Shown piece after piece: positions 18,957 to 61,753 of a stretch of DNA of 64,000 bases. The stretch comes from Burkholderiales bacterium. Its GTDB lineage: Bacteria; Pseudomonadota; Gammaproteobacteria; Burkholderiales; SG8-39. Location: the NCBI GenBank assembly GCA_036274735.1, contig DASUFD010000027.1:1710-65709 (forward strand). The letters run 5' to 3'. Under the pieces are notes generated by a model that was not told the origin of the DNA, ran no database searches, and saw only the letters and a program-made list of their open reading frames with translations. Positions within the stretch are counted from its first letter, which is position 1; each line of letters begins with the position of its first letter. Both the position numbers and the translations under genes were made by a program.

Positions 18957-19009
18957 TAGCTACTGACCGACGCCCCGCACGAATGTTCCTACGCCGTACA
19001 ATCCGGACC

Positions 19010-19339
19010 ATGGCGGAAAAGACGGCGACGCAGAAAGCGCCTCCATACGCGCGTTTTAGGGATTTTTATCCGTTCTATCTATCGCAGCATGCCAACCGCA
19101 CCTGCCGGCGCCTGCACTTCGTCGGCACGAGCCTCGGCCTGCTCGCCCTGCTGCGCGCGCTCGCCACGCTGAACTTCTGGTGGTTGCTGGCCGGCGTCGC
19201 GGCCGGGTACCTGCTCGCCTGGGTCGGCCACTTTTTCTTCGAGAAAAACCGCCCCGCCACGTTCAGCCATCCGCTGTACAGCTTCATCGGCGACTGGGTG
19301 ATGTGGAAAGACATGATCGTCGGGCGTATCCGCTTCTGA
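19010..19339 (+). CDS. DUF962 (Mpo1-like) membrane protein
   Basis: FRDFYPFYLSQHANRTCRRLHFVGT motif. ATG at 19010 is preferred over 18983, which would leave only 26 bp to the divergent gene. Confidence 0.65.
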   Translation: MAEKTATQKAPPYARFRDFYPFYLSQHANRTCRRLHFVGTSLGLLALLRALATLNFWWLLAGVAAGYLLAWVGHFFFEKNRPATFSHPLYSFIGDWVMWKDMIVGRIRF

Positions 19340-19367
19340 TCCGCTGCCGATCCGCGCTTCCGAATCC

Positions 19368-27330: not shown

Positions 27331-28614
27331 CTACGCGGCCTGGGCCAGCCGCCGATTGGACTCGGCCAGTCGTTCAATCAGGACTCGCATGCACGCCCTG
27401 TTGAGCGCTGCCTGGCAGGCGTCGGACGCCGCGCGCATGGCCGCGGCCTTCACTTCGAGCACGCCGATGTCGCGCCGCGCGCTGACGGTGGTGCTACGCG
27501 GTTGTTCGTGCTCCGAGAAGTACAGCATCTCGCCGAAGCATCGCCCGGCCTTCACCGTGGCGAGCAGCTTGCCGGAGAGCGTCACGTCGACCTCCCCATC
27601 GGCCAGGAAATAGAGCGCGTCCCCGGGCTCGCCTTCGCGCAGGACGACGCTGCCGGCGGCGATCGTCTTCCACGCGCCGATCCGCACCAGCTCCCACAGC
27701 GCGACATCGTTGAAGTCCGCGAAGAACGGCGATTCGCGCAGCTTGTTGAACCTTTCGGAGTCGGAGAGCACGCCGCCGGCCTGGCGCAGCGCCGCGAAGG
27801 CCTGCGAGAGGTCGCGACCGAAGTCGAGCCACGACGCGTAGCGCGCGGCCGGGTCCTTGGCGATGGCCCTCATCACTACTGAGTCGAGCAGCGCGGGCAG
27901 CTCGGGCCGCAGCTGTGCCGGGCGCTGCGGCTCGGCGTTCAGTATGGCGTAGGTGAGGCCCGCCTGGGTGGACGCGGCGAAGGGCAGGCGGCCGGTCACC
28001 AGCCGGTACATCGTGACGCCGAGCGAATAGATGTCGGTCTGGTGCGTGAGCGGCTCCATCCGGATCTGCTCGGGCGACATGTAGGCGGGTGACCCGACGA
28101 GGCTGACCTGCGTGGTGTCGAGCAGCTTCTGCTGGAACGACGCGCCGAAGTCCCCGACCTTCGTCTCGCCGCTCGCCGAAAGCAGGATGTTGCCGGGCTT
28201 GATGTCGCGGTGGATGACGCCGTGGCGGCAGGCGTACTCGAGCGCGCGCACGCACTTGAAGATGATCTCGACGACCTTGCCGAGCGGCAGGAGCGTCGGC
28301 GCCTCGGCGTGCGCCTCCAGAGTCGTGCCCGCGACGTACTCCATGACCAGGTAGCTGCGGTCCGGGTCGACCACGGCGTCGAAGATGTCGACGATGTGCG
28401 GATGGTTCAGCTTGCCGGCAAGCGACGCCTCGGCAACGAACGCCTTGTGCATCATCCGCTCCTCGTGCTCGTCGGCGTGCTTGTCGAAGAGGAACACCTT
28501 GATGGCCACCTCGCGCCCGGCGAAGGGGTCGCGCGCGAGATACACCTTGCTCGTCGCGCCCGCGCCGATCTCGCGCAGCACCGGATACTTGCCGATGCGC
28601 TCGGGCAGCGCCAC
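27331..28614 (-). CDS. Hanks-type Ser/Thr protein kinase fused to a cyclic-nucleotide-binding domain
   Basis: 427 aa. The GTG at 28612-28614 lies 2 nt after the chpA stop. Kinase motifs GAGATSKV, VAIKV, HRDIKPGNILL, DFG and SPAYMSPE. C-terminal cNMP cassette CFGEMLYFSEHEQPRSTTVSA. Confidence 0.88.
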   Translation of the reverse strand: MALPERIGKYPVLREIGAGATSKVYLARDPFAGREVAIKVFLFDKHADEHEERMMHKAFVAEASLAGKLNHPHIVDIFDAVVDPDRSYLVMEYVAGTTLEAHAEAPTLLPLGKVVEIIFKCVRALEYACRHGVIHRDIKPGNILLSASGETKVGDFGASFQQKLLDTTQVSLVGSPAYMSPEQIRMEPLTHQTDIYSLGVTMYRLVTGRLPFAASTQAGLTYAILNAEPQRPAQLRPELPALLDSVVMRAIAKDPAARYASWLDFGRDLSQAFAALRQAGGVLSDSERFNKLRESPFFADFNDVALWELVRIGAWKTIAAGSVVLREGEPGDALYFLADGEVDVTLSGKLLATVKAGRCFGEMLYFSEHEQPRSTTVSARRDIGVLEVKAAAMRAASDACQAALNRACMRVLIERLAESNRRLAQAA

Positions 28615-28616
28615 CC

Positions 28617-31600
28617 TTACCGCGCCGCGAAGGCAGCCACGTGCCGCACCAGCTCGGCCTCCTCATAGGGCTTGCCGAGGAACACGTCGACGCCGAGCTG
28701 CGCGGCCCGGCTGCGGTGCTTGGCCGCGGTGCGCGAGGAGATGACGATGATCGGGATGTCGGTGGTGCGCGGGTCGCCGCGCACGTTGCGCGCCAGGTCG
28801 AAGCCGTCCATGCGCGGCATCTCGATATCGACCAGCAACACCGCCGGCAGCTCGCCCTTGAGCTGCTCCAGCGCGTCGACCCCGTCCTTGGCGGTGAGCA
28901 CCCGGTAGCCCTCGCGCTCGAGCAGGCGGCCGGTGACCTTGCGTACCGTGATCGAGTCGTCGACGACCATCACCAGCGGCGCACGCACCTCCCGCGCTGC
29001 GAGCTCCGGTACGCCGGTGCGCGCGACGGGAAGGGCGGCGCGGCCGACGAGCTGGATCGGATTGACGATCAGCACGATGCTGCCGTCCGGCATCACGGTC
29101 GCACCTGCGACGCCGGGAATGCGGGCAAGCTGCGGCCCTATGTTCTTCACGACCATCTCGCGGCTGCCCACCAGCTCGTCGACATGGAGCGCGACGCGCT
29201 GCGTGCCGCTGCGAACCAGGAGCACCGCGTTGTAGTCGGCGATGTGCGTGGCGCCGCGGCTGCCGAACAGCTGGTGCAGGTAGTGGAGCGGATAGTCGCT
29301 CTCGCGGAAGACGACCTTCGCCGCTTCGTAGCACGCCACGAGCTCGTCGGCCTTGACGCGCAGCACCTGCTCGACCGCCGCCGAGGCGATCGCAAAGCGC
29401 TGCGTCCCGGCGCGAACCATGAGCGCCTGGGTGACCGCCAGCGTGAGCGGCAGATAGATGGTGAAGTGGGTGCCGCGGCCCGCGGCGGCGTCGGCCTCGA
29501 CCCGTCCGCCGATGGCGTTGACCTCGCTGCGCACCACATCCAAGCCGATGCCGCGGCCGGCCAGCTCGCTCACCGCTTCCGCGGTCGATAGCCCGGAGAG
29601 GAAGACGAGCTGCACGCATTCCTCTGGCGAAAGCGGCTGCTCGGCGGGAATGAGGCCCTTAGCCGCGGCACGCTCGCGAAGCCGCGCGCCGTCGATGCCG
29701 ATGCCGTCGTCGGCGAGGGCGATCACCAATTGATTGGCCTCCTGTCGCAGCGCGATGGAGATGCGGCCGCTTTCGGGCTTGCCGGCCGCGACGCGCGTCT
29801 CCGGGGCCTCGATGCCATGCACCATCGCGTTGCGCAGCATGTGCTCGAGCGGCGCGGCCATCCGCTCGAGGACGCCGCGGTCGAGCTCGACCTGGCCGCC
29901 GTCGATGGCGAGCTCCGCTTTCTTGCCCAGCTCGCGCGCCGCCTGGCGCACCACGCGATGCAGGCGCTCGGAGAGGCTGGAGAACGGCACGGCGCGCATG
30001 CGCATGAGGTCCTGCTGCAGCTCGCGGCTGATGCGCGCCTGCTGCAGCAGCGCGGCGTCGGTCTCGCCGACGCTGTGCAGGAGTGCCTGCTGGAGCGACG
30101 CGGCATCGCTCAGGCCCTCGGCCATCATGCGCGTCAGCTCCTGCAGGCGGGTGTACCGGTCGAACTCGAGCGGATCGAACTCGCCTTCCCGCTCTTCCAG
30201 GACGGCGCGGCGCGACTGCATCTGGCTGTCCGCCTGGATCTCGACCTCGCGCAGCTGCGTGCGCAGCCGCGAGACGCTTTCGCTCAGCTCGCCGAGCGCC
30301 TGCTTTACCTGGCGCAGCTCCGCTTCGATGCGCGATCGCGCGATTGCCGCCTCGCCCGCCTCGGTGATCAGCCGGTCGAGCCGCTCGGCGTTGATGCGCA
30401 GCATCGGCGTCGAAGCCGCAGCGGGCGCGGCCGCCGCGCCGGGTGCCCCGAGCTTCTCCAGGTCGGCGGACAGGCGATCCATCTTGCCTTCCAGGTCCTC
30501 GAACAGCTCGGTCGTGAGCTCGCCCGCCTCGAGCGCGAACTCGATGCGGCTCTCCATGAGGTGCGTGAGCTCGCCCAGGCGAATTGCCCCAGCCATGCGC
30601 GCGCTTCCCTTCAGCGTATGCAATGCGCGTTTCACCGCGTCGGCTGCGTGGCGATCCTCGGGCGATGCCTGCCAGTCGCGCAGGTCCCTGCCGAGCTGCG
30701 GCAGCAGCTCGCGCGCCTCGTCGAGGAACACCGGCAGCAGATGGGCGTCGATATCGTCGCGCACGGTACGCTTGTCCTTGCGGCGCGCCGGGACCTGCAA
30801 GCGGTCTTTCAGCGCCCGCAACGCGGCGAGCGCATCCTCGCCGCCGCGGCGCGCTTCCCCGCGGCCCGCGGCCTCGACCATCGCGGCCAGCGTGTCGACG
30901 CATTCGCCGACGACGGCGGCGTCGCCAGGCTCGCCGGTACGTGCGGCCAGGGCAAGCCATTGCTCGAGCGCGGCGGCGAGCGTCGCGATGTCCGGGAAGC
31001 CGGCGGTACGCGAGCTGCTGGCGAGCGTGTGCGCGGCGCGCATGAACTCCGGCGACGCCTCCGCAGGCGCCTGCTCGCGCCACGCGCCGTACTGCGCCTT
31101 CAACGTGGCGGCGTGCGCCGCGGCCTCCTTGAAGTAAATCTCTCGCATGCGCACGGCTGGATCGTCCTGCGCGCGCAGGCCGGCCGCGAGGCGACGCAGG
31201 GGTGCTGGATCGACGAGGGGCGACTCCCCGGCGCGCAACTGGGCGATCCAGGCGGAGAAGCGCTGATGCGCGAGCGCTACCAGCTCGAGCAGCTCGGCCG
31301 ATGCGGGCTGCTTCTGCTCCAGCCACTGATTCATGGCCCGCTCCACTTCCCACGCCGCCTCGCCGAGCTCCGTGAGCCCGACCATGCGCCCGCTGCCCTT
31401 CAGCGTATGGAAACCGCGCCGGATCGCCGCGAGCGCTTCCAGCTTCTCCGGCTCGGCGCGGCACGCCGCGAGCCCCGCTTCAACCGCCGCAACCACGTCC
31501 GCCGCTTCCTCGAGGAAGACCTGCAGTAGCTCGTCGGACGGCGCGCCCGCGCTCTGCGCGCCGGCCTTCTCGGGCATCGGCTGCTGCGCCGCCCGCGCGA

Positions 31601-33245
31601 GGAAGAGGTCGAGCGCCGCCTGCCGGGGCTCGCGTCCGTTCACGCAGGGGCTGATGAACAGCTCCAGGGCGCTGAGGCCTTCGGCCACCCAGTCCAGGCT
31701 CGCGCTGCCAGGCGAGAGCGTCGGCATCAGCGCCTCGCAACGCTCGAGCGCGGCGATGGCGCGATCCCAGCCGAGGACGGACAGCGCACCGTGGATCTGC
31801 CGCAGTTGCGGCGCCACGCCGCGCAGCTCGGCGAGCTCCTTCTGCCCCCGCGCGTAGCCGTCTAGCACCTGCTCGATCCGCTGCAGGTTCGCGAGCATTT
31901 CCTTGGCTACCTGGGAGCGAAGTTGCAGCGAGCTCACGTACTCGGTGAGCTCGCGGCGCAGGCCGGCCGGCGGCGCAACGGTCTTGCCCGCGCCGGCGGC
32001 GTCGGCAAGCCAGCGGCCGAGGAGGCTCACCTGCTCGTCGAGATCCGGCGCGGGATGAAGGAATGTCTCGAGGATGCTCTCGGCGAGCAGGAACGCGGAA
32101 GCCATCTCGGCGAGCATCGCTTCGCTGTCGGGCGGACGCGGGTCCGGCAGCGTCGCGGCCGCTTCGCCGACGGCTCGCAGGAGCGCGCTGAGCGGCGCGC
32201 TGGAGAGCGCGCCGACGCGCTCCTTCAGCGCCTGCACCCGCGCCCGGAAGGCCAGCGCGCCGCTCGGCTCGCCTTCCAGGTATTGCTGCCAGGTCTGCTG
32301 GGCGGCCTGGAGGCGCAGCCGCACGTCCTCGAGCACCGGTTGCAGCGTGTCGACATCCGGGCTGCGCGCGCCTTGCGCAGGCAGCAGGGCGTCGAGGCCA
32401 TAGAGGCGCTTGACGTCGCGCAGGCGTTGCGTGAGCGGCGCGCAGCAGGCGATGGCATAAAGCAGGTCGCGCAGCAGGGGCTCGTTGTCGGGGCTCGCGT
32501 CCCGCCCCTGCGCAAGCTGCCGAATGTAGATGTCGATCTTGTTCCACAGCGATCGCGCCTGCGCGAGGCGTTGCGGGTCGGTAGCGTTCGGCAGGCCATC
32601 GGCCAGGGCGCCGGCGACCCACCACAAGGCGCGGCGCTCGGGCAGCAGGTGCGCGACCGAATGGATGACGTCGAGCGTGGCGCGCATCTCGTCCAGCGCC
32701 TGGGGCTCGCGTCGGATCCAGCCGAGGATGGCCCGCTGCCAGCGCGTGCGCTGCGACTGCAGGAACGCCGGCAATTCCGCCGCCTCGATGGCGAGCGGCC
32801 GGGGGTGCGAGGGGGCGGGCGGCGTCAGGTCAGGGAAGAACAGCTCGATCTCCGAGCTGTCCTCGCGTCCCTGGAGCTGCGCGAGCTCCCGGTATACGGG
32901 GAAGAGCCGCGTCGGCGCGTTCGGCTGCCCGCGCGCCACGTCGTCGACGAACTGCCTCAGCTCGAGCACCGCCCGGTCGAGCACTGCCGCGCCCTGGGCG
33001 CCGGCATCCTCGAGCCCGGTCAGGCTTCTCTCCAGTGCCTCGCAAAAGCGCGTCGCGCCGCTCAGTCCGACCATGTTCAGCGCACCGCTCACCTGGTGCA
33101 GGTGCTCGGGACACGCGGCGAGCGGCGCGGCGTCGCCCGGCGCCGTCCGGTACGCGGCGAGCTGGCGGCGCACGCGCTCCAGCGCCTGGTCCACCTCGGC
33201 GGTGATCCAGGAAAGAATCGTCGTGTCGGCCATCAAGCCCGTCAC
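28617..33245 (-). CDS. chpA: ChpA/PilL-type hybrid CheA histidine kinase (multiple Hpt, HATPase, CheW-like, C-terminal receiver)
   Basis: 1542 aa. Canonical Hpt motifs GFHTLKGSGR (His613) and ALHTLKGSAR (His876), plus three degenerate Hpt-like sites. Kinase core HMLRNAMVHGIE...GRGIGLDVV, then a CheW-like region. REC domain VMVVDDS...LVDIEMPRMDG. Start is GTG 33245 or ATG 33233. Confidence 0.9.
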   Translation of the reverse strand: MTGLMADTTILSWITAEVDQALERVRRQLAAYRTAPGDAAPLAACPEHLHQVSGALNMVGLSGATRFCEALERSLTGLEDAGAQGAAVLDRAVLELRQFVDDVARGQPNAPTRLFPVYRELAQLQGREDSSEIELFFPDLTPPAPSHPRPLAIEAAELPAFLQSQRTRWQRAILGWIRREPQALDEMRATLDVIHSVAHLLPERRALWWVAGALADGLPNATDPQRLAQARSLWNKIDIYIRQLAQGRDASPDNEPLLRDLLYAIACCAPLTQRLRDVKRLYGLDALLPAQGARSPDVDTLQPVLEDVRLRLQAAQQTWQQYLEGEPSGALAFRARVQALKERVGALSSAPLSALLRAVGEAAATLPDPRPPDSEAMLAEMASAFLLAESILETFLHPAPDLDEQVSLLGRWLADAAGAGKTVAPPAGLRRELTEYVSSLQLRSQVAKEMLANLQRIEQVLDGYARGQKELAELRGVAPQLRQIHGALSVLGWDRAIAALERCEALMPTLSPGSASLDWVAEGLSALELFISPCVNGREPRQAALDLFLARAAQQPMPEKAGAQSAGAPSDELLQVFLEEAADVVAAVEAGLAACRAEPEKLEALAAIRRGFHTLKGSGRMVGLTELGEAAWEVERAMNQWLEQKQPASAELLELVALAHQRFSAWIAQLRAGESPLVDPAPLRRLAAGLRAQDDPAVRMREIYFKEAAAHAATLKAQYGAWREQAPAEASPEFMRAAHTLASSSRTAGFPDIATLAAALEQWLALAARTGEPGDAAVVGECVDTLAAMVEAAGRGEARRGGEDALAALRALKDRLQVPARRKDKRTVRDDIDAHLLPVFLDEARELLPQLGRDLRDWQASPEDRHAADAVKRALHTLKGSARMAGAIRLGELTHLMESRIEFALEAGELTTELFEDLEGKMDRLSADLEKLGAPGAAAAPAAASTPMLRINAERLDRLITEAGEAAIARSRIEAELRQVKQALGELSESVSRLRTQLREVEIQADSQMQSRRAVLEEREGEFDPLEFDRYTRLQELTRMMAEGLSDAASLQQALLHSVGETDAALLQQARISRELQQDLMRMRAVPFSSLSERLHRVVRQAARELGKKAELAIDGGQVELDRGVLERMAAPLEHMLRNAMVHGIEAPETRVAAGKPESGRISIALRQEANQLVIALADDGIGIDGARLRERAAAKGLIPAEQPLSPEECVQLVFLSGLSTAEAVSELAGRGIGLDVVRSEVNAIGGRVEADAAAGRGTHFTIYLPLTLAVTQALMVRAGTQRFAIASAAVEQVLRVKADELVACYEAAKVVFRESDYPLHYLHQLFGSRGATHIADYNAVLLVRSGTQRVALHVDELVGSREMVVKNIGPQLARIPGVAGATVMPDGSIVLIVNPIQLVGRAALPVARTGVPELAAREVRAPLVMVVDDSITVRKVTGRLLEREGYRVLTAKDGVDALEQLKGELPAVLLVDIEMPRMDGFDLARNVRGDPRTTDIPIIVISSRTAAKHRSRAAQLGVDVFLGKPYEEAELVRHVAAFAAR

Positions 33246-33252
33246 CGGCGCT

Positions 33253-35361
33253 TCACGCCAGCCTGAAGCCGGCCACCGACTTCTTCAGCCCGACGGCCAG
33301 CTCGGTCAGCTTGGTCGCCGAGAGCGCGGTCTTCTTCGTACCCTCGGTGGTGAGCTGCGTCACGCCGAGGATGATCTTCATCTTGCCCGCCACCTCGGAT
33401 GCCGAAGCCGCCTGCTGCTGGGTGGCGTTGGAGATCGCGCCGATCAGCTCCGCCAGCCGGTTCGAGATCTTCTCGATCTCGCGCAGCGCCTGGTCGGCTT
33501 CGTCAGCGGTGCGCGTCCCCTCCACGACTTCCCGGGTGCTGCGCTCCATCGCCTCCACGGCGTCCTGGGTGTCGCGCTGAATGCTTTTCACGATCGTCCC
33601 GATGTGCTTGGTGGCTTCCGCCGAGCGCTCGGCGAGGCGCTGCACCTCCTCGGCAACCACCGTGAAGCCCCGTCCCGCCTCCCCCGCCGAGGCCGCCTGG
33701 ATCGCAGCGTTCAGCGCGAGCACGTTGGTCTGCTCCGTGATGTCGGAGATCAGCTGCACGATCTCGCCGATCTCCTGCGAGCTCTCGCCGAGCCGCTTGA
33801 TGCGCTTCGAGGTCTCCTGGATCTGCTCGCGGATGTCGTTCATGCCGCGGATCGCGTTCTGCACCGCCTCGGCGCCCTTGCCCGCAGCGGCGAGGGACGA
33901 CTCGGCCACCCTCGCCGAGTCGTTGGCGCTCGCCGAAACCTGGTTCATCGACTGCGCCATCCGCGTCACCGACTGTCCGGTCGCCTGGATCTCCATCGCC
34001 TGCTTCTGCGTCGCCTGCAGGAGCTGCCCCGACACCGTCTGGGCCTCCTGGGTCGCCGCGTTCACCTGCTGCGCGGCGTTTGTGATGCCGGCCACCAGAC
34101 GCCGCAGCTCGTCGATCGTGTAATTGATCGAATCGGCGATCGCACCGGTCATGTGCTCCGTGACCCGTGCCCGCACCGTCAGGTCGCCGCTCGCGAGGTT
34201 GCCGATCTCGTCCAGCAGCCGCAGGATGGCGTCCTGGTTCTCGCGGTTCTGGCGCTCGCTCTGCTCGGCCCGACGACGGCTGTCGTCGATGTACGTCTTG
34301 CCGATGAGCAGCAGCACGGCGAAGGCGAGCAGCGACACCCCGAGCATCGCCGCGAAGTTGAGCCGCCGGGCGTTGAGCAGGCCGTCGTAGCCGGCAGCGA
34401 GCTGCTCCGTCGCGCCGAGCAGCTTCTCGCTATCGTTGAAGATGTCGCGGGTGGCGCGCTTCGCGTTCACCAGGCGCTGCATGTTGCCGAGGATCTGGCT
34501 CACGCCCGCCTGGTACTCCTTGAAGGTCGCCTGCAGCTCGGCAAGCTTGCCGCGGATCATCGGCTCGTCGACCCGATCGATACGCAGCGCGCGGTCGCCC
34601 TGGGCGAGGCCCTGCACCAGGTCGCGAAAGGTGTTGGTGTCCTTGCCGAGCAGGAACGCCACCTCGGGGTCGACGATATCGCCCGCCAGCATGGCATTGG
34701 CGTTCTTCGCCATGCGCTGGGTCAGCATCACGAGCTGCGCGGCAATCGCGTTCTGCCGGGCGCCACCGCCGGTCTGCACGCTGAACGCGGCCACCTCCTC
34801 GGCGTTCTCGAGCAGCACCGGGTTGTTCTCGTTGATGGTGCGCACCGCGCCTGCCAGCGCGACCAGGTTGCGCTCCTCGCCGATCACCAGCATGGCGTTG
34901 CGTTCGGTCTTGCGCCACTCCGTTTCCAGCGCGGCGAGCCTGGGGCGCACCGCGTCCGGGGTCGGCGGCAGGTCCACCTCGGCGGCGGTGCCTCCTGCCG
35001 CGAGCAGGTGGACGAGCGAGGCGAACTCGTCGCGGCTTTCGCGCAGCTGCTGGAAAGCCACCGGGTTGCCTTGCGAAGCCTGCTGCGCCGCCTTGGCCAG
35101 GCGCTGCGACAGCATGCGCAGCTTTCCGACGGTCGCGACGTAGAGCGTGTCGAAGGTCGCCTCACGAGCGTCGTAGACGACGACGCCGACGTCGATCGCG
35201 AGGAGCACGACGAGCAACACCATCAGGAACTGCAGTCGTCGCCCCGCGCCGCGCCGGGCGAGGCCGGCAAGCACCCCGGCCATGCCGCCGGAGGAGCGCG
35301 CTGCCCCCGCGGCGTCGCGCGCGATGAAAGGTATCTTGAAGAATTCGAGCCTGTTTCCCAT
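33253..35361 (-). CDS. pilJ: PilJ-type methyl-accepting chemotaxis protein
   Basis: 702 aa. Two PilJ/NarX-like periplasmic boxes ([13 protein letters not shown] and [13 protein letters not shown]). Signalling hairpin [31 protein letters not shown]. Confidence 0.9.
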
Positions 35362-35370
35362 GGCGACTCC

Positions 35371-36501
35371 CTAGCGCAGAAACTTGCCGTCGCGGGCGAT
35401 GATCGTCAGGTCAACGAACTTCGACGCGCTGTGATTGGTCGGCGAGAAGCCGACATAGAAGCCGCCGACGTCGACGTCGTTCATCCTCTCCAGCGTGGCG
35501 ATCAGCCGCTCGCGGGTGAGCTCGCGCCCGGTACGGCGCAAGGCTTCGACGAACACTTTCGCGGCGATGAAGCCTTCGATGGTGGTGAAGGTCAATTCCT
35601 TGTGGCCGGCGCGCCGCATCAAACCCTGATACTCGCGCACTACGGGGACCGCGGCGCCCCACGGGAAGGGCATCACCTGCGAAATCGCCACCCCGACGCC
35701 CTGCCCGCCGAGGTCGTCCGCGAGCGCCTTGCTGCCGACGAACGAGACGTTGTAGAACTGCGCGGCGCTGCCCTGCTTCTTCATCTGGCGGATGAACTCC
35801 GCGCAGGCCTTGTACGCGCCGATCATGACCACCGCGTCCGGCTGCGCGGCGTTCAAAGTTTTCACCGCGCGCTCCACCTTGACCGTGTTCCGCTCGAAGA
35901 TGCCCGTCGCCGAGATCTTCAGGTTGCGCCTCTCCATGGCGAGCTCGACCCCCTTGAGGCCCGCCTGCCCGTAGGCATCGTCCTGGTAGAACACGGCGAT
36001 GTTCTTCGAGCCGGTCGATACGAGCTGCTCGACGATCTTCTCCGTTTCGTCGTAATAGCTCGCTCTCACGTTGAAGATGTAGTGGTTCACCGGCTGGCGC
36101 AGCAGCTCGGCGCCGGTGAACGCGCCGAAGAACGGCACCTTCGCCTGTGTGAAAATCGGCAGCGCGGCCGCCGAGGTGGGCGTACCGACGTAGCCGAAGA
36201 GCGCGAATACCTTGTCCTGCTCGATCAGCCGCTTCGTGTTCGGCACGGTGCGCGAGGGCTCGTAGCCGTCGTCGAGCGTGATGAGCCGGATCTTGCGCCC
36301 GCTTACGCCGCCGCTCGCATTGACGTAGTCGAAGTAAACCTTCGCCCCGTTGCGCATCTCCGTGCCGAGAGCGGCCGCCGGACCCGTGAGCGCGACCGAC
36401 TGGCCGAGCACGATGGTGTCGGCGCTGACGCCGTTCTCGGCGAAGCTCGCAGGCGAGAAGAATCCTGCCGCGACGAGCAGGCAAGGAGCGATGCGCTTCA
36501 T
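35371..36501 (-). CDS. periplasmic substrate-binding protein, LivK/Peripla_BP_6 (branched-chain amino acid ABC type)
   Basis: Track ORF trimmed to the ATG at 36499-36501, giving 376 aa. Signal peptide MKRIAPCLLVAAGFFSPASFA. Motifs IVLGQSVALTGPAAALG and GYVGTPT. ATGA overlap with the pilI stop, with a GGAGG SD inside the pilI 3' end. Confidence 0.88.
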   Translation of the reverse strand: MKRIAPCLLVAAGFFSPASFAENGVSADTIVLGQSVALTGPAAALGTEMRNGAKVYFDYVNASGGVSGRKIRLITLDDGYEPSRTVPNTKRLIEQDKVFALFGYVGTPTSAAALPIFTQAKVPFFGAFTGAELLRQPVNHYIFNVRASYYDETEKIVEQLVSTGSKNIAVFYQDDAYGQAGLKGVELAMERRNLKISATGIFERNTVKVERAVKTLNAAQPDAVVMIGAYKACAEFIRQMKKQGSAAQFYNVSFVGSKALADDLGGQGVGVAISQVMPFPWGAAVPVVREYQGLMRRAGHKELTFTTIEGFIAAKVFVEALRRTGRELTRERLIATLERMNDVDVGGFYVGFSPTNHSASKFVDLTIIARDGKFLR

Positions 36502-37025
36502 AGGCTGGCCTCCAGGAAAGCGGGGTGTTCGACGAGGGCCGGGATGTCGAGCTCCCTCCACAGCTTGCCGTGCGCATCGGCGAAGACGCCGCGCACGAAC
36601 GCCGGCCGGCGCGGCGCGTTCTCGCCGTGCTGGCGCAGCGCCTCGGGATCGCGCAGACCGAGCGAGCGCTCGACGAGCAGCGCCGCCCCGGAACGAAAGC
36701 GCTCGTTGACGAGGAGCAGGCGGCATTGCTCGCCGGGCCTCGTGGGCGCTCCGCCGAGGAACGCCGCGAAGTCGGTCACGCAGTACAGGTTTCCGCGCAC
36801 ATTCGCCACGCCCTTGAACCAGGGGCGCGCGAGCGGCACGGCGGAGACTGCGGGCACGGGAATGACTTCGCCCGCCTCTGCGAGGTCGACCAGCCAGCCT
36901 TCGTCCCCGACCTGCAGCCCGAGCTTCGAGGCGATGCGCGCGCCCGCTTGGGCGCTCTGCAGGCGCTCGGAAAGCGCGAGCTGATACTCGCGCAGCGAGC
37001 CCGCTCGGGAGGCCGGCGTGGCCAT
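36498..37025 (-). CDS. pilI: CheW-like coupling protein PilI
   Basis: Trimmed to the ATG at 37023-37025, giving 175 aa. CheW-like core (VPLARPWFKGVANVRGNLYCVTDF). Shares 1 nt with the pilH stop. Confidence 0.85.
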   Translation of the reverse strand: MATPASRAGSLREYQLALSERLQSAQAGARIASKLGLQVGDEGWLVDLAEAGEVIPVPAVSAVPLARPWFKGVANVRGNLYCVTDFAAFLGGAPTRPGEQCRLLLVNERFRSGAALLVERSLGLRDPEALRQHGENAPRRPAFVRGVFADAHGKLWRELDIPALVEHPAFLEASL

Positions 37026-37390
37026 CAGCCGAGCGCGGCGATCTTGGCGAGCAGATCCGCCGGGTTGACGGGCTTGACGACATAGTCGCGCGCGCCCTGG
37101 CGCAAGCCCCACACCTTGTCGGTCTCCTGCCCTTTGCTGCTGCACAGTATGATCGGGATGCTCTTGGTGCTCTCGTCCCTGCTCAGGGCACGCGTCGCCT
37201 GGAAGCCGTTCTGCCCGGGCATCACGACATCCATCAGCACGAGGTCTGGGCGCGATGTTCTGAGCTTGGCCATCGCGTCCTCGGCGCTCTCGGCCGTGGC
37301 GACCTTGAAGCCGCTCTTGGACAGGATCTCGCTCAGGTACTGGCGGTCGGTAGGCGAATCGTCGACGACCAGGATGTTGGAAATAGCCAT
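37025..37390 (-). CDS. pilH: single-domain response regulator PilH
   Basis: Trimmed to the ATG at 37388-37390, giving 121 aa. Motifs ILVVDDSPTDR...LMDVVMPGQNG...KP. Confidence 0.9.
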   Translation of the reverse strand: MAISNILVVDDSPTDRQYLSEILSKSGFKVATAESAEDAMAKLRTSRPDLVLMDVVMPGQNGFQATRALSRDESTKSIPIILCSSKGQETDKVWGLRQGARDYVVKPVNPADLLAKIAALG

Positions 37391-37401
37391 GGCAATGCCT
37401 T

Positions 37402-37827
37402 TCAGTTGGAAACGGAAGAAGCTTTGACGTACTCGTTGACCGCCTCGACCAGGCCTTCCCGCGTGAAGGGCTTGGTGAGATAGCGATCGGAACCGGCCAG
37501 GCGGCCGCGCGCCCGGTCGAAGACGCCGTCCTTGCTCGAGAGCATGATCACGGGGGTCGACTTGAGGCGCGCGTTCTGCTTGATCAGCGCGCAAGTCTGG
37601 TAGCCGTCCAGGCGCGGCATCATGATGTCGACGAAAATGACGCGCGGCTGGTGGTCGGCGATCTTGGCGAGGGCATCGAAGCCGTCCTCGGCGAGAATCA
37701 CTTCGTAGCCGGCTTGGCGGAGGAACGTTTCGGCGCTGCGCCGGATGGTGTTGCTATCGTCGATGACAAGGACTTTGACCGGTCCTGTTCCTACCGTGAG
37801 CGGTCCGACCGTGGTCTCGTTCGTCAC
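37402..37827 (-). CDS. pilG: single-domain response regulator PilG
   Basis: 141 aa, GTG start with a GGAGGAG SD. VLVIDDSNTIRRSAETFL...FVDIMMPRLDGYQTCALIK...LSSKDG...YLTKPF closely resembles Pseudomonas PilG as I recall it. Confidence 0.92.
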   Translation of the reverse strand: MTNETTVGPLTVGTGPVKVLVIDDSNTIRRSAETFLRQAGYEVILAEDGFDALAKIADHQPRVIFVDIMMPRLDGYQTCALIKQNARLKSTPVIMLSSKDGVFDRARGRLAGSDRYLTKPFTREGLVEAVNEYVKASSVSN

Positions 37828-39846: not shown

Positions 39847-41160
39847 TCAGCGCCCGAGCGCGGGGAGCCAGGTCGCGATGAGCGGGAAAGCGATGATGAG
39901 GGCGATCAGGAGGAGCACGCAGGAGATGAACGGCACCGCGGCGAGGTAGATCTCGCGCATCGTGGTGCCCGGCGGCGCGACGCCCTTCATGACGAACAGC
40001 AGCAACCCGAACGGCGGCGTCGTGTAGCCGATCTCGAGCGAGAGCAGCATGATCAGGCCGAACCAGGTCAGGTCGAAGCCCAGGGTCTTGGCGAGGGGAA
40101 AGAAGATCGGCGCGGTGAGCAGCATCATCGAGAGCTGGTCCATGAAGCAGCCGAGGAAAAAAATGATGCCGATCATGACGAGCAGCATGCCGAGGGACGA
40201 GAAATGGAAGTTCGTCGCCCAGGCGATGAGGCCGCTCGAGGCGCCCGAGAAGGCGAGGATCTGGCTGAACGTCGCCGAGCCGAGGATGATGAGGAAGGCC
40301 ATTACCGTGACGCGCAGCGCCGCATCCACCGAGCGGCGGAAGCTCCTCCACGAGAGCGCGCGGTAGCAGGCGGCGAGCACGATGACGCCGAGGCAGCCGA
40401 CGGCGGCGGCTTCGGTGGGCGTCGCGTAGCCGGCCACCATGACTCCGATGACGAGCACGATGACGGCGAACATCGGCAGGATGTCGACCAGCACGAGGCG
40501 CGCCTTCTCGGCGAGCGAGGCGCGCTGCGCCGCGTAGGCGGGCGCGGCCTTCGGGTCGACGACGGTCCAGACGAAGATCAGCGCCGCGTACATCGTCGCG
40601 AGGAGCACCCCGGGGACGACGCCGGCGAGCAGCAGCGCGCCGACGTCGCTTCGCCCGAGCGTGGCGAGCAGCACCGCGAGCGCCGAGGGCGGGATGATGA
40701 CCGCCAGGCCCCCGGTGCCCATGATCGGGCCGATCGAGAGGTACTTGCTGTAGCCGCGGCGCATCATCTCCGGGACCATCAGCGAGCCGAGCAGGGCCGT
40801 CGAGCCCATGCTCGATCCCGAGAGCGCGGCAAAGCCGGTCCCGCCGACCACGGTCACGTAGGCGAGGCGCCCAGGAACGTTGCCCATCAACCGGTCGATG
40901 GCGTTGAACATCCGCGCCGCGAGGCCGGTGTGATAGAACAGATCGCCCATCAGCAGGAACATCGGGATCGGCACCAGCGCGAAGCTCGTCATCGCGCCGA
41001 ACCCGCTGTTCAGCATCTGCGCGACCCCGAGCGTGCCGCCCATGAAGACGTGAGCCGCGACGATGTTCGCGGCGAGGAACGCCATGGCGACCGGCATGCC
41101 GACCAGCATGAGCGCCACCAGCAGGCCGAACAGCAGCGCGATTGCCCAGTACCACTCCAT
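39847..41160 (-). CDS. TRAP transporter large permease (DctM family)
   Basis: 437 aa, highly hydrophobic, with DctM-like motifs. Confidence 0.9.
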   Translation of the reverse strand: MEWYWAIALLFGLLVALMLVGMPVAMAFLAANIVAAHVFMGGTLGVAQMLNSGFGAMTSFALVPIPMFLLMGDLFYHTGLAARMFNAIDRLMGNVPGRLAYVTVVGGTGFAALSGSSMGSTALLGSLMVPEMMRRGYSKYLSIGPIMGTGGLAVIIPPSALAVLLATLGRSDVGALLLAGVVPGVLLATMYAALIFVWTVVDPKAAPAYAAQRASLAEKARLVLVDILPMFAVIVLVIGVMVAGYATPTEAAAVGCLGVIVLAACYRALSWRSFRRSVDAALRVTVMAFLIILGSATFSQILAFSGASSGLIAWATNFHFSSLGMLLVMIGIIFFLGCFMDQLSMMLLTAPIFFPLAKTLGFDLTWFGLIMLLSLEIGYTTPPFGLLLFVMKGVAPPGTTMREIYLAAVPFISCVLLLIALIIAFPLIATWLPALGR

Positions 41161-41163
41161 CGC

Positions 41164-41628
41164 CTACTCGCCGGCCGTCAGGCCCGACCCGTACGGGCTC
41201 TCCCCGCGCACGAGGAGCCGCAAGAACTCGATCGCCATCATGCCGAAGGACAGCGGCATGAAGGCCATCAGCATCCAGCGCGGCATGTCGAAGGAGCGCA
41301 CGTCCTTCTCGTTGCCGAGAAAATCCTGGACGGTGATGGCGCCACCGAACCAGGCGAGGATCCCGGCGACCGCGATGCAGGCGACGACGACCGCCAGCAG
41401 CAGGGCGCGCTGCGCGCGCGGCGGAACCGCCGAGACCACCAGCTCGATGTAGATGTGGCCCTTCTCGCGCACCAGCCAGGGCGCGCCCAGCAGCGGGATG
41501 AGCAGCAGGAAATACTCGGTGAAGGTGAAGAAGTGCGCCGAGCTCTGGAAGCCGAGGTTGCGCAGCGCGACGTCGCTGACGATCATCGCCAGCATCGCGA
41601 CCATCAGCAGACCGGCGAGCCACGCCAT
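41164..41628 (-). CDS. TRAP transporter small permease (DctQ family)
   Basis: 154 aa with 4 hydrophobic segments. Lies 3 nt upstream of the large permease. Confidence 0.85.
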   Translation of the reverse strand: MAWLAGLLMVAMLAMIVSDVALRNLGFQSSAHFFTFTEYFLLLIPLLGAPWLVREKGHIYIELVVSAVPPRAQRALLLAVVVACIAVAGILAWFGGAITVQDFLGNEKDVRSFDMPRWMLMAFMPLSFGMMAIEFLRLLVRGESPYGSGLTAGE

Positions 41629-41677
41629 CCCGTAGAGGACGGCGCGATACGCTTTGCCGATCAGGGCGCGGTCCCGG

Positions 41678-42682
41678 CTACTTCGGCAGCGGGCCCGGGG
41701 TGAAGAGCTCGACGATCCGCTCGAAGTTCTCCATGCCGCCCGCCTTCTGCATGCGCTCCTTCATGCGCGCCAGGCTCGCCGAGCGCGCGCCCTCGACGAA
41801 GCGCTTCGAGGCCTCCGGCGACTGGGCGATCGTCTTGATGCCGCGCCGCTCGAGCTCCGCCTTCTCCTTCTGCCAGAGCTGCTGCAGCGCCGCCTCGCTC
41901 GAGACCTCGTGCTCGATCGTCACGCGCTGCAGGATCTCGCGTGTCTTCGGCGAGAGCGCGTTCCACTTCTTCAGGTTGACGAGGATGTGCAGGTCGGTGG
42001 AGAAGAAGTCCGGCAGGATCCGGTACTTCAGATAGCGGTCCCAGTTCAGGTCCATGAGGCCGATCTGCGTCCACGCCGTGATCTCCACCGTGCCGCGCTC
42101 GAGGGCCGTATAGAGGTCCGGCGAGTTGACGTTGATCACCTGCGCGCCAAGGTAATTGGTGAGGAAGGCGTTGTAGATGGGATGGCCGCGGACCTTGAAG
42201 CCGCGGATGTCGATGTGGCCGGTCGAGTCGAGCTTGGGCTCCTTGGTCGACCAAAGGTCGAAGCGGATGCCGCTGTCCACCCAGCCGAGGTTGTAGACGC
42301 CGATGCGCTGCTGGTGGATCTTGTTGAGCAGATCCATGCCGCCGTTCTTGCGCGCCGTCGGGCCGTCGATCGTCGAGGCGGAGACCGCGTCGCACTCCGG
42401 GACCTGCGCCGCGTAGAAGGCGCAGGCGGTGTAGATCATGTCGACCACGCCGCTGCGCACCGCGCCCGGCTGCTCCATCATCGGGATCGCCTCCGGGCCG
42501 CCGCGCACCTGTATGCTGAACACGCCCTGGCCCGCCGCGTTCGCCTTCTTCACGAACTCGAGGAAGCTGCGCGAATAGACGAGCGAAGCCGGAAATACGT
42601 GCGTCGCCGTGATGGTGTCGGCAGCGAAGGCCGAGGCCGAGCAGGCCAGGCCGAGCGCCGCGACGAAGCGCAATGCCTTCAT
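41678..42682 (-). CDS. TRAP transporter substrate-binding protein (DctP family)
   Basis: Trimmed to the ATG at 42680-42682, giving 334 aa. Signal peptide MKALRFVAALGLACSASAFA. GGAGGGGG SD. Confidence 0.85.
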   Translation of the reverse strand: MKALRFVAALGLACSASAFAADTITATHVFPASLVYSRSFLEFVKKANAAGQGVFSIQVRGGPEAIPMMEQPGAVRSGVVDMIYTACAFYAAQVPECDAVSASTIDGPTARKNGGMDLLNKIHQQRIGVYNLGWVDSGIRFDLWSTKEPKLDSTGHIDIRGFKVRGHPIYNAFLTNYLGAQVINVNSPDLYTALERGTVEITAWTQIGLMDLNWDRYLKYRILPDFFSTDLHILVNLKKWNALSPKTREILQRVTIEHEVSSEAALQQLWQKEKAELERRGIKTIAQSPEASKRFVEGARSASLARMKERMQKAGGMENFERIVELFTPGPLPK

Positions 42683-42746
42683 TTCTCCCCCTCCGGTGGA
42701 ATGCCGAGTTGTCCTCGAGCCGCGCGGCATCTTACCATCCTGTCCG

Positions 42747-44216
42747 GTGACGACGGTCTTTACTGCGTTCGCGGAAACCGCCCGCGCGCACGGCGCCAAG
42801 CCATTCCTGCAAGTCCTCCCTGAAGAGGTCGAGCTCACGTACGGGCAGGCCTACGAGCGTGTCGAAGCGCTGGCGCGCCGTTACGCGGCGCGCGGCTTCG
42901 GCGTCGGCCACCGCGTCGCTCTCAAGCTGGCGAACTGCAGCGCTTTCCTGCTTCATTTCCTCGCGCTCAACCGCGTCGGCGCATCGGTGGTGCCGCTCAA
43001 CCCCGACTGCCGGCCGGCCGAGCTCGAGTACGTGCTCGAGCACAGCGAGGCGGTGCTGGTCGTCGACTCACCCGCCGTCGACGGCTTCGATCCGCCCCCC
43101 GCGCCGAAGCCCGGCGAGGCGAGCGAATGCGCGCTGCTTTACACCTCGGGGACCACGGGCAAGCCGAAGGGCTGCCTGCTCAGCAACTTCTACTTCCTCT
43201 ACGTAGGGCGTCGCTATGTGGAGGAAGGCGGGCTGTGCGAGCTGCGCTTCGGCGAAGAGCGCCTCATCACGCCCCTGCCGCTCTTCCACATGAACGCGCT
43301 CGCCGTGTCGACGACGGCGATGATCCTGACCGCCGGCTGTGTCGTCCAGCTCGATCGCTTCCACCCGCGCACGTGGTGGCGCGACGTGGTGCGCTCGCGC
43401 GCGACGATCGTGCACTACCTCGGCGTCATGCCCGCCATCCTGATGCGGCAGCCGGCTTCGGCCGATGAGCGCGCGCACGAGGTGCGCTTCGGCTTCGGCG
43501 CCAACGCCAACCCCGCAGACCACGCCGCCTTCGAGCAGCGTTTCGGTTTCCCGCTGATCGAGGCCTGGGCGATGACCGAGACCGGCGGCGCCGGCTACAT
43601 CGCCGCGAGCCGCGAGCCGCGGCACGTCGGCACGCGCTGCATCGGCTTTCCTCGCGACGATCTCGATTTCCGCATCGAGGAGGACACGGGCGAGCTGCTG
43701 GTGCGCCAGCGCGGCGCGGATCCGAGGCGCGGCTTCTTCTCGGGTTACCTGAAGGACGATCGCGCGACCGCGGAAGCGTGGCGCGACGGCTGGTTCCACA
43801 CCGGCGACTGCATGCGCCTGGGCGCCGACGGCGCGCTGCATTTCGTCGATCGGCGCAAGAACATCATCCGCCGCTCCGGCGAGAACATCGCCGCGCTCGA
43901 GGTCGAGGCCGCGCTCGCCGGCCATCCCGCCGTCGCGCAGGTCGCGGTCATCGCCAAGCCGGACGAGGTGCGCGACGAGGAGGTGATGGCGTGCGTCGTG
44001 CTCGCGCCCGAGCATGCGCCGACGCAGAGCACCGCGCTCTCCATCCAGGACTGGTGCCTCGAGCGCCTCGCCTACTTCAAGGCGCCGGGGCATGTCGCGT
44101 TCCTCGCCGAGCTTCCCGTGACCTCGACCAACAAGGTGCAGAAGGCGCGCCTCGCCGACTTCGCCATCGCGCCCGAGCGCAGCTTCGACCTGCGCTCGCG
44201 CAAGCGCCGCCCGTGA
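42747..44216 (+). CDS. AMP-dependent acyl-CoA synthetase/ligase
   Basis: Motif LYTSGTTGKPKG. The track start at 42609 overlaps the dctP 5' end. The GTG at 42747 (VTTVFTAFAETARAHG...) is preferred, with GTG 42696 as an alternative. Confidence 0.8.
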   Translation: MTTVFTAFAETARAHGAKPFLQVLPEEVELTYGQAYERVEALARRYAARGFGVGHRVALKLANCSAFLLHFLALNRVGASVVPLNPDCRPAELEYVLEHSEAVLVVDSPAVDGFDPPPAPKPGEASECALLYTSGTTGKPKGCLLSNFYFLYVGRRYVEEGGLCELRFGEERLITPLPLFHMNALAVSTTAMILTAGCVVQLDRFHPRTWWRDVVRSRATIVHYLGVMPAILMRQPASADERAHEVRFGFGANANPADHAAFEQRFGFPLIEAWAMTETGGAGYIAASREPRHVGTRCIGFPRDDLDFRIEEDTGELLVRQRGADPRRGFFSGYLKDDRATAEAWRDGWFHTGDCMRLGADGALHFVDRRKNIIRRSGENIAALEVEAALAGHPAVAQVAVIAKPDEVRDEEVMACVVLAPEHAPTQSTALSIQDWCLERLAYFKAPGHVAFLAELPVTSTNKVQKARLADFAIAPERSFDLRSRKRRP

Positions 44217-59438: not shown

Positions 59439-60218
59439 ATGCTCGCCGAAGTCGGTTATGAAGTCGCCGCAGTCAGGGCGTTCAAGGACAACTACGTCTG
59501 GACGCTGCGCAACGCCACCCATGCGGCGGTGGTCGATCCGGGCGACGCCCAGCCCGTGCTCGATTATCTCGCGCAGGAGAAGCTTGCGCTCGCCGCGGTG
59601 CTCGCGACGCATCACCATCCGGACCACGTCGGCGGCATCGCCCGCCTGCTCGAGCGCTGGAGCGTCCCGGTGTACGGGCCGCGGGGCGAGCCCATCGCCA
59701 CGGTGACCCGGCCGGTTTCGCAGGGCGACACGGTGGAGATCGGGCAGCTCGGCGCCCGCTTCTCGGTGCTCGACATTCCCGGCCATACGCGCGCGCACAT
59801 TGCCTATTATGGCGGCGGCGCCCTCTTCTGCGGCGACACGCTCTTCGCCTGCGGCTGCGGGCGGCTCTTCGAAGGCACGCCGGAGCAGATGTTTGCGTCC
59901 CTCGAGAAGCTGCGCGCCCTTCCCGACGACACGAAGATCTATTGCGGGCACGAATACACGCTCGCCAACATCGGCTTCGCCAGGGCAGTGGAGCCCGGGA
60001 ACGCGGCGCTCGAGCGGCGCGAAGCGCGCGACCGGCGCCTGCGCGAAGCCGGTCGCCCTACCCTTCCCTCGACGCTCGGCGACGAAAAGGCCACCAACCC
60101 GTTCCTGCGCTGTCGCGAGACGGCGGTCATCGAGTCGGCGAACAAGTATCTCGGCGCGCGCATCGCCGATCCGGTGCGCGTATTCGCCGCCATCCGTGAG
60201 TGGAAGAACCGGTTTTGA
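59439..60218 (+). CDS. gloB: hydroxyacylglutathione hydrolase (glyoxalase II)
   Basis: 259 aa. Motifs THHHPDHVGG, GHT and CGHEYT. Confidence 0.93.
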   Translation: MLAEVGYEVAAVRAFKDNYVWTLRNATHAAVVDPGDAQPVLDYLAQEKLALAAVLATHHHPDHVGGIARLLERWSVPVYGPRGEPIATVTRPVSQGDTVEIGQLGARFSVLDIPGHTRAHIAYYGGGALFCGDTLFACGCGRLFEGTPEQMFASLEKLRALPDDTKIYCGHEYTLANIGFARAVEPGNAALERREARDRRLREAGRPTLPSTLGDEKATNPFLRCRETAVIESANKYLGARIADPVRVFAAIREWKNRF

Positions 60219-61708: not shown

Positions 61709-61753
61709 CAGGCGCAACGGCGCGTCCTGTGCCACTATGCGGGCCGCACTGCG

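Follow-up and report, generated by a model that had tools for sequence, protein, structure and literature searches.

A solute-binding protein gene coupled to pilI and pilJ encodes a candidate co-receptor of a Pil-Chp chemosensory system

We analyzed a stretch of 64,000 nucleotides from a Burkholderiales bacterium (contig DASUFD010000027.1 of assembly GCA_036274735.1; hereafter the window) in which a gene for a periplasmic solute-binding protein (SBP) lies between pilI and pilJ, within the Pil-Chp operon that encodes the chemosensory system of type IV pili. With moderate confidence, we favor the reading that this SBP serves as a dedicated periplasmic co-receptor for PilJ, the pilus chemoreceptor. 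Judging from the sequence comparisons described below, we take the SBP to be the probable detector of a chemical signal on behalf of PilJ, since its gene and the outer sensing domain of that receptor are inherited as a pair.

The SBP gene and its operon

The operon has the order pilG-pilH-pilI-SBP-pilJ-chpA-Ser/Thr kinase, all on the minus strand, and comprises the following features.

37402..37827, minus strand: pilG, single-domain CheY-like response regulator, first gene of the operon (Pfam Response_reg, E = 5e-27)
37025..37399, minus strand: pilH, second CheY-like response regulator (Pfam Response_reg, E = 8e-31)
36498..37025, minus strand: pilI, CheW-like coupling protein (Pfam CheW, E = 8e-19)
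36509..36513, minus strand: GGAGG Shine-Dalgarno sequence of the SBP gene, within the pilI 3' end, 7 nt before the ATG
35371..36501, minus strand: SBP gene, 376 aa, Peripla_BP_6 (type I, LivJ-like fold), without a linked transporter
36439-36501, minus strand: predicted SBP signal peptide, residues 1-21, from a rule-based reading of the sequence
35362..35370, minus strand: spacer GGAGTCGCC from the SBP stop codon (TAG) to the pilJ ATG, 9 nt, with GGAG directly after the stop
33253..35361, minus strand: pilJ, Pil-Chp methyl-accepting chemotaxis protein (MCP), 702 aa (Pfam PilJ in two stretches, and MCPsignal)
34351..35166, minus strand: periplasmic ligand-binding domain (LBD) of PilJ, residues 66-337, proposed docking partner of the SBP, from the match to PilJ LBD structures
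28617..33245, minus strand: chpA, hybrid CheA-type histidine kinase, 1542 aa (Pfam multiple Hpt, HATPase_c, CheW, receiver)
27331..28614, minus strand: Ser/Thr protein kinase with a C-terminal domain binding cyclic nucleotides (cNMP), last gene of the operon (Pkinase, E = 1e-49; cNMP_binding, E = 3e-15)

The SBP gene is tightly joined to both of its neighbors. At the upstream junction (minus strand, CTGGAGGCCAGCCTATGAAG), an ATGA combines the SBP start codon with the pilI stop codon TGA, and the GGAGG lies inside the pilI 3' end; at the downstream junction (CTGCGCTAG-GGAGTCGCC-ATG), the TAG stop codon is followed after 9 nt by the pilJ ATG. The spacing is similarly short further downstream, with 7 nt between pilJ and chpA and 2 nt between chpA and the kinase gene. 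All of these junction features of the SBP gene had been described in an initial annotation made from the DNA letters, and we read each of them in the sequence. The placement between a CheW gene and an MCP gene that it had proposed was borne out by Pfam, which found CheW upstream and the PilJ and MCPsignal domains downstream. The 376-aa open reading frame (ORF) with a signal peptide was likewise present, on the minus strand (the annotation had not stated the strand), the signal being recognized by rule only. A profile search agreed with the proposed LivK/Peripla_BP_6-type identity: Pfam Peripla_BP_6 (PF13458) matched residues 29-363 with E = 1.2e-62 and 213 bits against a cut-off of 31.7, while NCBIfam models of Liv and urea binding proteins matched only weakly, below their thresholds.

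The GC content at third codon positions is 0.91 in the SBP frame, 0.92 in pilJ, and 0.90 in chpA, and it is 0.46 and 0.60 in two long alternative ORFs on the same DNA. Since the value for the SBP matches that of its neighbors, we consider the frame real and the gene native in composition, and we rejected a foreign origin on the same grounds. A longer in-frame ORF of 570 aa (35371-37083) was also rejected: 68% of its 194 extra residues are R, A, P, or G and the extension overlaps the CheW-matching pilI frame, which indicates that it is non-coding.

In the translation of ORF 35371..36501 (minus strand), the SBP starts with MKRIAPCLLVAAGFFSPASFA followed by ENGV. By rule, this N terminus is predicted to be a Sec-type signal peptide, with an MKR n-region, a 12-residue hydrophobic core, and S-F-A at positions -3 to -1, and the predicted cleavage junction (A, then E/Q-x-GV) is kept in SBP homologs. 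We rejected a lipoprotein reading, as there is no lipobox and Cys7 stands after I-A-P and ahead of the hydrophobic core. As for the receptor, hydropathy places a first transmembrane segment (TM1) at residues ~45-65 of PilJ, a periplasmic domain at ~66-337, and a second transmembrane segment (TM2) at ~338-358, followed by the signaling domain. The LBD matches the solved PilJ LBD structures 7ZJR and 8WDF over its full length (E ~1e-36).

The Pil-Chp core set (pilG, pilH, pilI, pilJ, chpA) is complete in this one cluster, and its order, by Pfam, is that of relatives, in which the position of pilG is conserved. No gene for CheR (PilK) or CheB (ChpB) was found in the cluster, the remainder of the genome, where these enzymes may be encoded, not having been searched, and a promoter and terminator scan of the operon gave nothing above shuffled expectation. 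Searching with E. coli LivH/M/G/F by tblastn, we detected neither a permease nor an ATPase of the Liv type in the window; the sole weak match, located 27 kb away at 63123-63896, was to an unrelated ABC ATPase.

Recurrence of the SBP and its inheritance with the PilJ sensing domain

In species-representative genomes, scanned with one genome for each species, 586 stretches encode a relative of the SBP, and the best 80 loci were analyzed for gene context (loci from all scans are designated here by L numbers). Twenty-three of these belong to a Pil-Chp cluster, the other 57 being located elsewhere, and the order pilH-pilI-SBP(-pilJ) was found in 20 of the 23. Burkholderiales homologs from metagenome-assembled genomes (MAGs), with 72-87% identity, keep the entire arrangement pilG-pilH-pilI-SBP-pilJ-chpA-kinase. 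When metagenomes were scanned from the PilJ side, 80 PilJ loci were returned, 67 of them with both pilI and pilJ. The SBP gene stands between the two in 6 of the 67, with PilJ proteins 74-79% identical to that of the window, while in about 60 of them, which are more distant clusters, pilI is directly followed by pilJ. Because of these ~60 clusters without the insert, we regard the SBP as an accessory of one Pil-Chp branch and not as a general component.

The initial annotation had raised the question of whether related pilI-pilJ pairs carry the same insert. They do so in 20 genomes at the species level and in 6 contigs from metagenomes, and the genes are closely spaced: the gap from pilI to the SBP gene ranges from -4 to +42 nt in pil-linked loci, with the ATGA overlap in 10 of 26, and the gap from the SBP gene to pilJ is mostly 9-12 nt in relatives. 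Mean column identity of the SBP is 76-82%, and the tight coupling of the gene is kept across lineages in which identity between PilI proteins has fallen to about 60%. The gene is found beside pil genes in other arrangements, too. In L019 the order is SBP-pilG-pilH-pilI-pilJ, all in the same direction; in L013 the SBP gene is divergent from pilG; and in L068 pilI is followed by a Phosphonate-bd SBP, a Peripla_BP_6 SBP, and then pilJ. The nearest relatives of the SBP copies in these three loci are other pil-linked SBPs.

The clearest view of how the gene is inherited comes from two closely related loci, L008, which carries the pil-linked SBP, and L147, which does not. In both, a grpE-dnaK-dnaJ-SBP-paralog group is divergent from pilG, back to back with the pil-chp genes (L008 1-4449, L147 1-4395). 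Their DNA is 88% identical from dnaJ up to a point 51 nt short of the pilI end and 86% identical from PilJ residue ~342, at the start of TM2, through chpA (at the protein level, DnaJ 91%, PilG 91%, PilH 94%, PilJ 346-702 92%, and ChpA 81%). The variable block of L008 measures 2.25 kb and contains the SBP gene together with TM1 and the LBD of PilJ, and that of L147 measures 1.14 kb and contains a PilJ LBD 36% identical to that of L008 and no SBP gene. The LBD of L147 is closest (53-55%) to the LBDs of L138 and L150, both of which lack the SBP. Among the clusters that carry the SBP between pilI and pilJ, all those with a PilJ cytoplasmic domain at least 77% identical to the window's have an LBD 61-78% identical to that of the window; for L147, identity to the window PilJ is 81% in the cytoplasmic domain and 34% in the LBD. 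From the L008/L147 block exchange and these LBD identities across loci, we conclude that the SBP gene and the PilJ LBD travel together. The dnaJ-linked paralog is a plausible local source of the copy that entered the pil operon.

Several side features of these loci are recorded here in their own right. Phosphonate-bd (PF12974) proteins occupy the pilI-pilJ slot in L068 (5105-5908) and in L153 (4589-5782). In the latter, the only 1 of the 67 metagenomic loci with a different binding protein at this place, the domain is fused to Rhodanese; an unrelated binding protein is placed at the same site here, a convergence that we count in favor of the co-receptor reading. In L036, a rhodanese gene directly precedes the SBP gene, which may hint at sulfur compounds. 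The cluster of L138, without a Peripla_BP_6 SBP, has a TctC/Bug-family binding protein gene (3454-4476) that shares the strand of pilG and lies 80 nt upstream of it. As Bug proteins are very numerous in Burkholderiales, this may be chance. Finally, L011, L015, L024, L029, and L064 are labeled Enterobacteriaceae, Clostridia, or Lysobacter, and the loci are clearly of the same betaproteobacterial type; these bins are probably mislabeled or contaminated.

Fold, binding pocket, and genomic context of the SBP family

An AlphaFold2 model of the SBP, built from 60 homologs (pLDDT 87, pTM 0.85), shows alternating strand-helix elements and the two lobes of a binding protein. The structure prediction that the initial annotation had proposed thus points to a standard two-lobe binding-protein fold, a result with which Foldseek agrees. 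The best matches in both structure and sequence are 4KV7, 3LOP, and 4M88 (TM-scores 0.84, 0.82, and 0.81), followed by binders of aromatic acids, amino acids, and urea. 4KV7, a structural genomics entry from Rhodopirellula baltica, is 39% identical to the SBP, with the same fold and the same Pfam family, and shares with it the pocket motifs VGTPT, FTGA, YG, and VSFVG, which 3LOP lacks. Nothing relevant on the ligands of 4KV7, 3LOP, or 4M88 was found in the literature.

For the pocket, we took as a reference E. coli LivJ, in which, according to the LivJ/LBP structures, Ser79, Thr102, and Tyr202 hold the carboxylate and Glu226 the alpha-amino group of the ligand. We confirmed the identity of each LivJ residue in the E. 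coli sequence and mapped these residues by alignment onto 84 family members; LivJ and the SBP are ~18% identical in this alignment, so that one-residue register shifts are possible in the following correspondences.

LivJ Y18: SBP L45
LivJ L77-C78-S79: SBP V105-G106-T107
LivJ A100-A101-T102: SBP F128-T129-G130
LivJ Y150: SBP Y177
LivJ Y202: SBP A229 (Y230 adjacent)
LivJ E226: SBP S253

All ten aligned pocket positions are invariant or nearly so among the 84 members. Where LivJ uses hydroxyl and tyrosine positions to hold the carboxylate, the SBP appears to have kept them, while the glutamate for the amino group is replaced by serine. The amino acid ligand that had been guessed initially is therefore not supported, since the counterpart of Glu226 is an invariant serine (S253), although the carboxylate-binding equivalents are kept. 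A small carboxylate without an alpha-amino group is our low-confidence suggestion for the ligand.

The homologs outside Pil-Chp clusters (56-68% identity) are mostly found in the arrangement hemH-grpE-dnaK-dnaJ-SBP(-SBP2(-SBP3))-cysS. In 30 of the 57 non-pil loci dnaJ is directly upstream, and the others are beside unrelated housekeeping genes. Tandem SBPs between dnaJ and cysS occur in L014, L018, L020, L023, L029, L034, L035, L039, L055, L066, L074, and L082, without transporter genes (for example SBP1-SBP2 at 6001-7125 and 7261-8313 of L014; L020 has three copies). Liv-type ABC genes adjoin none of the 57 non-pil loci, as judged by tblastn with LivHMGF and by a Walker A/LSGGQ pattern search. 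As none is found beside the window gene or these loci, the subfamily as a whole is without a linked transporter. The statement of the initial annotation that no ABC partner is adjacent hence holds for the window and the 57 non-pil loci, but needs qualification for four relatives that have a Liv-type transporter upstream of pilG (see below). These four were also the only exception when we rejected a hidden transporter partner of the SBP, nothing being adjacent elsewhere.

In an exhaustive search of 1.84 billion cluster representatives, 2,217 matched at E <= 1e-30, and the best 150 were inspected. Among these, four proteins (P0215, P0218, P0255, P0264) are MCP fusions whose C-terminal domain is 41-45% identical to the SBP and keeps its pocket motifs. 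Neither a signal peptide on the SBP domain nor a membrane segment at the junction is present, and we therefore take them to be true fusions and not merged gene calls. Their order is reversed, with an N-terminal membrane anchor, the MCP signaling domain, and then the SBP domain, and they are apparently all cytoplasmic. The same set contains eukaryote-like giants of 1,100-3,000 aa (P0121, P0122, P0125, P0151) with 2-7 tandem SBP-type domains; both of those scanned against Pfam (P0125, P0151) have a class C G-protein-coupled receptor 7TM domain.

The kinase at the end of the operon follows chpA in L001, L003, L108, L118, L132, L147, and L163 as well, and is upstream of pilG in L012. Since L147 has the kinase without the SBP, the two are separable accessories. 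This distribution suggests that the kinase after chpA represents a cAMP-responsive kinase branch of this Pil-Chp variant. Two further genes lie 6-10 kb from the operon: one for a mechanosensitive channel of the MscS type that carries a fused cNMP-binding domain (19317-20891, plus strand) and one for a receiver-GAF-GGDEF-EAL protein (16728-18959, minus strand). Together with the kinase, they form a local cluster of second-messenger signaling genes. The operon is flanked by genes of acyl-CoA metabolism, the upstream neighbor of pilG encoding an acyl-CoA dehydrogenase, and by a TRAP transporter (39847-42850) with its own DctP binding protein. Further away, at 60200-63133 (plus strand), two adjacent paralogous genes encode lytic transglycosylases (SLT and LysM) with Ala/Pro-rich N-terminal regions.

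A co-receptor role weighed against other explanations

The activation of MCPs by SBPs is established for MBP-Tar and PstS-CtpL, and SBPs encoded together with a receptor instead of a transporter are known from BasB-BasT, LuxP-LuxQ, TorT-TorS, AioX-AioS, and GlnH-GlnX-PknG (PMC8050422). The closest of these to the window is BasB-BasT of Halobacterium salinarum: BasB is a Peripla_BP_6 protein encoded directly upstream of its MCP, without a transporter, and loss of basB impairs chemotaxis in much the way that loss of basT does (PMC8050422). In our case, too, the SBP is encoded with an MCP and without a transporter, in at least 26 loci, and the MCP has a periplasmic domain between two transmembrane segments. 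The systems differ in that BasT is archaeal, has a dCache-like domain, and serves swimming, whereas the window receptor is the single MCP of a bacterial Pil-Chp system and has a PilJ/HBM-like domain. The specificity of BasB for branched-chain amino acids cannot be transferred, the pocket of the window SBP lacking the LivJ-type ligand of the amino group.

In E. coli (the maltose-binding protein MBP with Tar, the ribose- and galactose-binding proteins RBP and GBP with Trg, and DppA with Tap) and in Pseudomonas aeruginosa (PstS with CtpL), a ligand-loaded SBP docks on the helical bundle of the MCP, as we propose here. Those SBPs are transporter components encoded with ABC systems (PMC8050422), whereas the window SBP is encoded inside the chemosensory operon. 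The PilJ LBD has an HBM-like fold (PMC12632253), and among receptors activated by SBPs, an HBM domain is present in CtpL and a similar, HBM-like domain in TorS (PMC8050422). LuxP-LuxQ, TorT-TorS, and AioX-AioS resemble the arrangement proposed for the window in that an SBP dedicated to signaling, without a role in transport, is encoded beside its membrane sensor, and AioX belongs to the Phosphonate-bd family also seen in the pilI-pilJ slot of L068 and L153 (PMC8050422). Their outputs differ, as LuxQ, TorS, and AioS are two-component histidine kinases acting on transcription and not parts of a chemotaxis-type MCP/CheA array, and so do the other SBP families (Peripla_BP_4, Peripla_BP_1). In mycobacterial GlnH-GlnX-PknG, the SBP signals to a membrane protein whose periplasmic domains are helical bundles, and this protein to a cytoplasmic Ser/Thr kinase, all three being co-encoded (PMC8050422), and the window operon ends with a Ser/Thr kinase as well; however, GlnH is an SBP_bac_3 protein, GlnX has no MCP signaling domain, and a CheA/CheW/CheY module is missing. 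Compared with the P. aeruginosa cluster (pilGHIJK-chpABC), the order of pilG, pilH, pilI, pilJ, and chpA is the same, pilK and chpB are missing, and the SBP and the cNMP-binding Ser/Thr kinase are extra. The SBP shares fold and Pfam family with LivJ and LivK but has no LivHMGF partner, and E226 and Y18 of LivJ correspond to S and L.

On the co-receptor reading, translational coupling would lead to synthesis of the SBP in a fixed proportion to PilI and PilJ. The protein would be exported via the Sec pathway, lose its signal peptide, and bind a small ligand in its interlobe cleft. In a ligand-dependent conformation, it would then dock on the periplasmic helical-bundle domain of PilJ and, through PilI, alter the kinase activity of ChpA and hence the phosphorylation of PilG and PilH, which set pilus polarity and the direction of twitching. 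The cyclic-nucleotide-binding Ser/Thr kinase at the end of the operon may also be affected. That PilJ might sense indirectly through an orphan SBP had already been suggested in the initial annotation. Synteny, the alternative gene orders, the L008/L147 exchange, and the fusions speak strongly for this idea, the mirror-tree analysis described next does not, and it is on this balance that we infer indirect sensing. Also in its favor are the coupled operon structure with native codon usage, the lack of a linked transporter, and the type of the PilJ LBD.

A number of observations weigh against the co-receptor reading. The argument for a mobile cassette comes from one clean locus pair, L008 and L147. 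L118 has an LBD 71% identical to that of the window and only a paralogous SBP2-type gene, upstream of pilG, and clusters with LBDs 50-56% identical to the window's have no adjacent SBP. Over 25 loci, a mirror-tree analysis showed no co-evolution of SBP and LBD beyond phylogeny (r = 0.49; partial correlation, given the PilJ cytoplasmic domain, 0.04), and the SBP tracks the pil genes less well than these track each other. No residue is specific to pil-linked SBPs (>=85% there, <=10% elsewhere), and the pocket is invariant across the pil-linked and dnaJ-linked groups; because of this, no PilJ-specific surface is marked in the SBP sequence. In four pil-linked loci (L011, L015, L031, L016), a complete Liv-type transporter adjoins pilG upstream. 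All carriers found are uncultured (MAGs or a single-cell genome). In a neighbor-joining tree rooted with paralogs, the pil-linked SBPs form one clade on the full data, with a bootstrap of 26-32% for all of them together, 84% for the core 23, and 93% for L013 with L019. At such support for the clade of all copies, a single origin with rearrangement and repeated recruitment are both possible. Either way, the outcome implies selection for the linkage of the SBP to pil genes.

Some of these points would be expected if the SBP were an ordinary transport protein serving an ABC importer encoded elsewhere, as LivJ does for LivHMGF in E. coli, an explanation that we consider unlikely but with some real chance of being right. 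The position in the operon would then reflect co-regulation only, or a secondary signaling role like that of maltose-binding protein with Tar. The SBP does belong to the Liv-type family of transport binding proteins, its pocket is identical to that of dnaJ-linked homologs without signaling neighbors, and both the absence of specific SBP-LBD co-evolution and the transporters next to pilG fit. These transporters, however, have their own binding protein, encoded between livF and livH, and in L016 two genes on the opposite strand intervene between the transporter and pilG. LivHMGF genes are found neither in the window nor beside the 57 non-pil members. It is general knowledge that transport SBPs are usually made in large excess from their own promoters, and not coupled to CheW and MCP genes. 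Moreover, co-regulation leaves the exchange of SBP and LBD as a block, and the MCP fusions, unexplained.

The genetic evidence for partnership with PilJ would apply equally to an SBP that is a constitutive structural or regulatory subunit of the receptor and not a small-molecule sensor. Such a subunit could, for example, set the basal kinase activity, or report the state of the envelope or the pilus (pilin, peptidoglycan fragments, or mechanical load) instead of a diffusible chemical. There are precedents, since the binding proteins of TorT-TorS and CBP-ChiS stay bound to their sensor without ligand (PMC8050422), and Pil-Chp is also a surface- and mechano-sensing system (PMC12632253). The near-invariance of ten pocket positions in 84 members nevertheless speaks for selection on binding one defined small ligand, and the predicted fold is that of a standard two-lobe binding protein close to 4KV7. 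We thus find this explanation quite improbable. Very improbable is a mere passenger, a dnaJ-linked copy that landed between pilI and pilJ in one lineage and is functionally unrelated to PilJ: the insert is confined to one part of the PilJ tree, with ~60 pilGHIJ clusters lacking it, and the grpE-dnaK-dnaJ-SBP group directly beside the pil cluster in L008 and L147 is an obvious local source of a duplicate, but the gene is intact, highly conserved, and tightly coupled across diverged lineages, the association is re-created in other gene orders, and the SBP is exchanged together with the LBD.

The co-receptor reading can also be extended to the family. As its members usually stand, without a transporter, right after dnaJ, and as the pocket is near-invariant in 84 of them, the subfamily might be a general, separately encoded co-receptor of PilJ-type receptors across Betaproteobacteria, with the SBP and the LBD forming a cassette moved by recombination. 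We hold this extension to be decidedly unlikely. The lack of a residue separating the two groups is compatible with dnaJ-linked copies that would act on PilJ in like manner from a locus of their own, and a shared role in transport fits equally. If the extension were true, pilus chemosensory systems would gain a defined chemical input.

For PilJ itself, a 2025 review states that evidence for a ligand or for a site to bind one is lacking although the crystal structure is available (PMC12632253), and SBP input to P. aeruginosa PilJ has only been hypothesized (PMC10896506, PMC12632253). A full-text literature search found no earlier description of an SBP gene inside a pil-chp cluster. SBP-dependent chemoreception in Pil-Chp therefore appears to be a variant undescribed so far of a general concept that is already known. 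The lineage carrying the SBP makes the question of the PilJ signal directly testable, as the mature protein is a soluble one of 355 residues that can be made in E. coli. If the co-receptor reading is true, it would be the first time that a chemosensory system of type IV pili is given a defined pathway of chemical input, and the SBP and the receptor domain would constitute two-gene sensor modules that are exchangeable as a unit.

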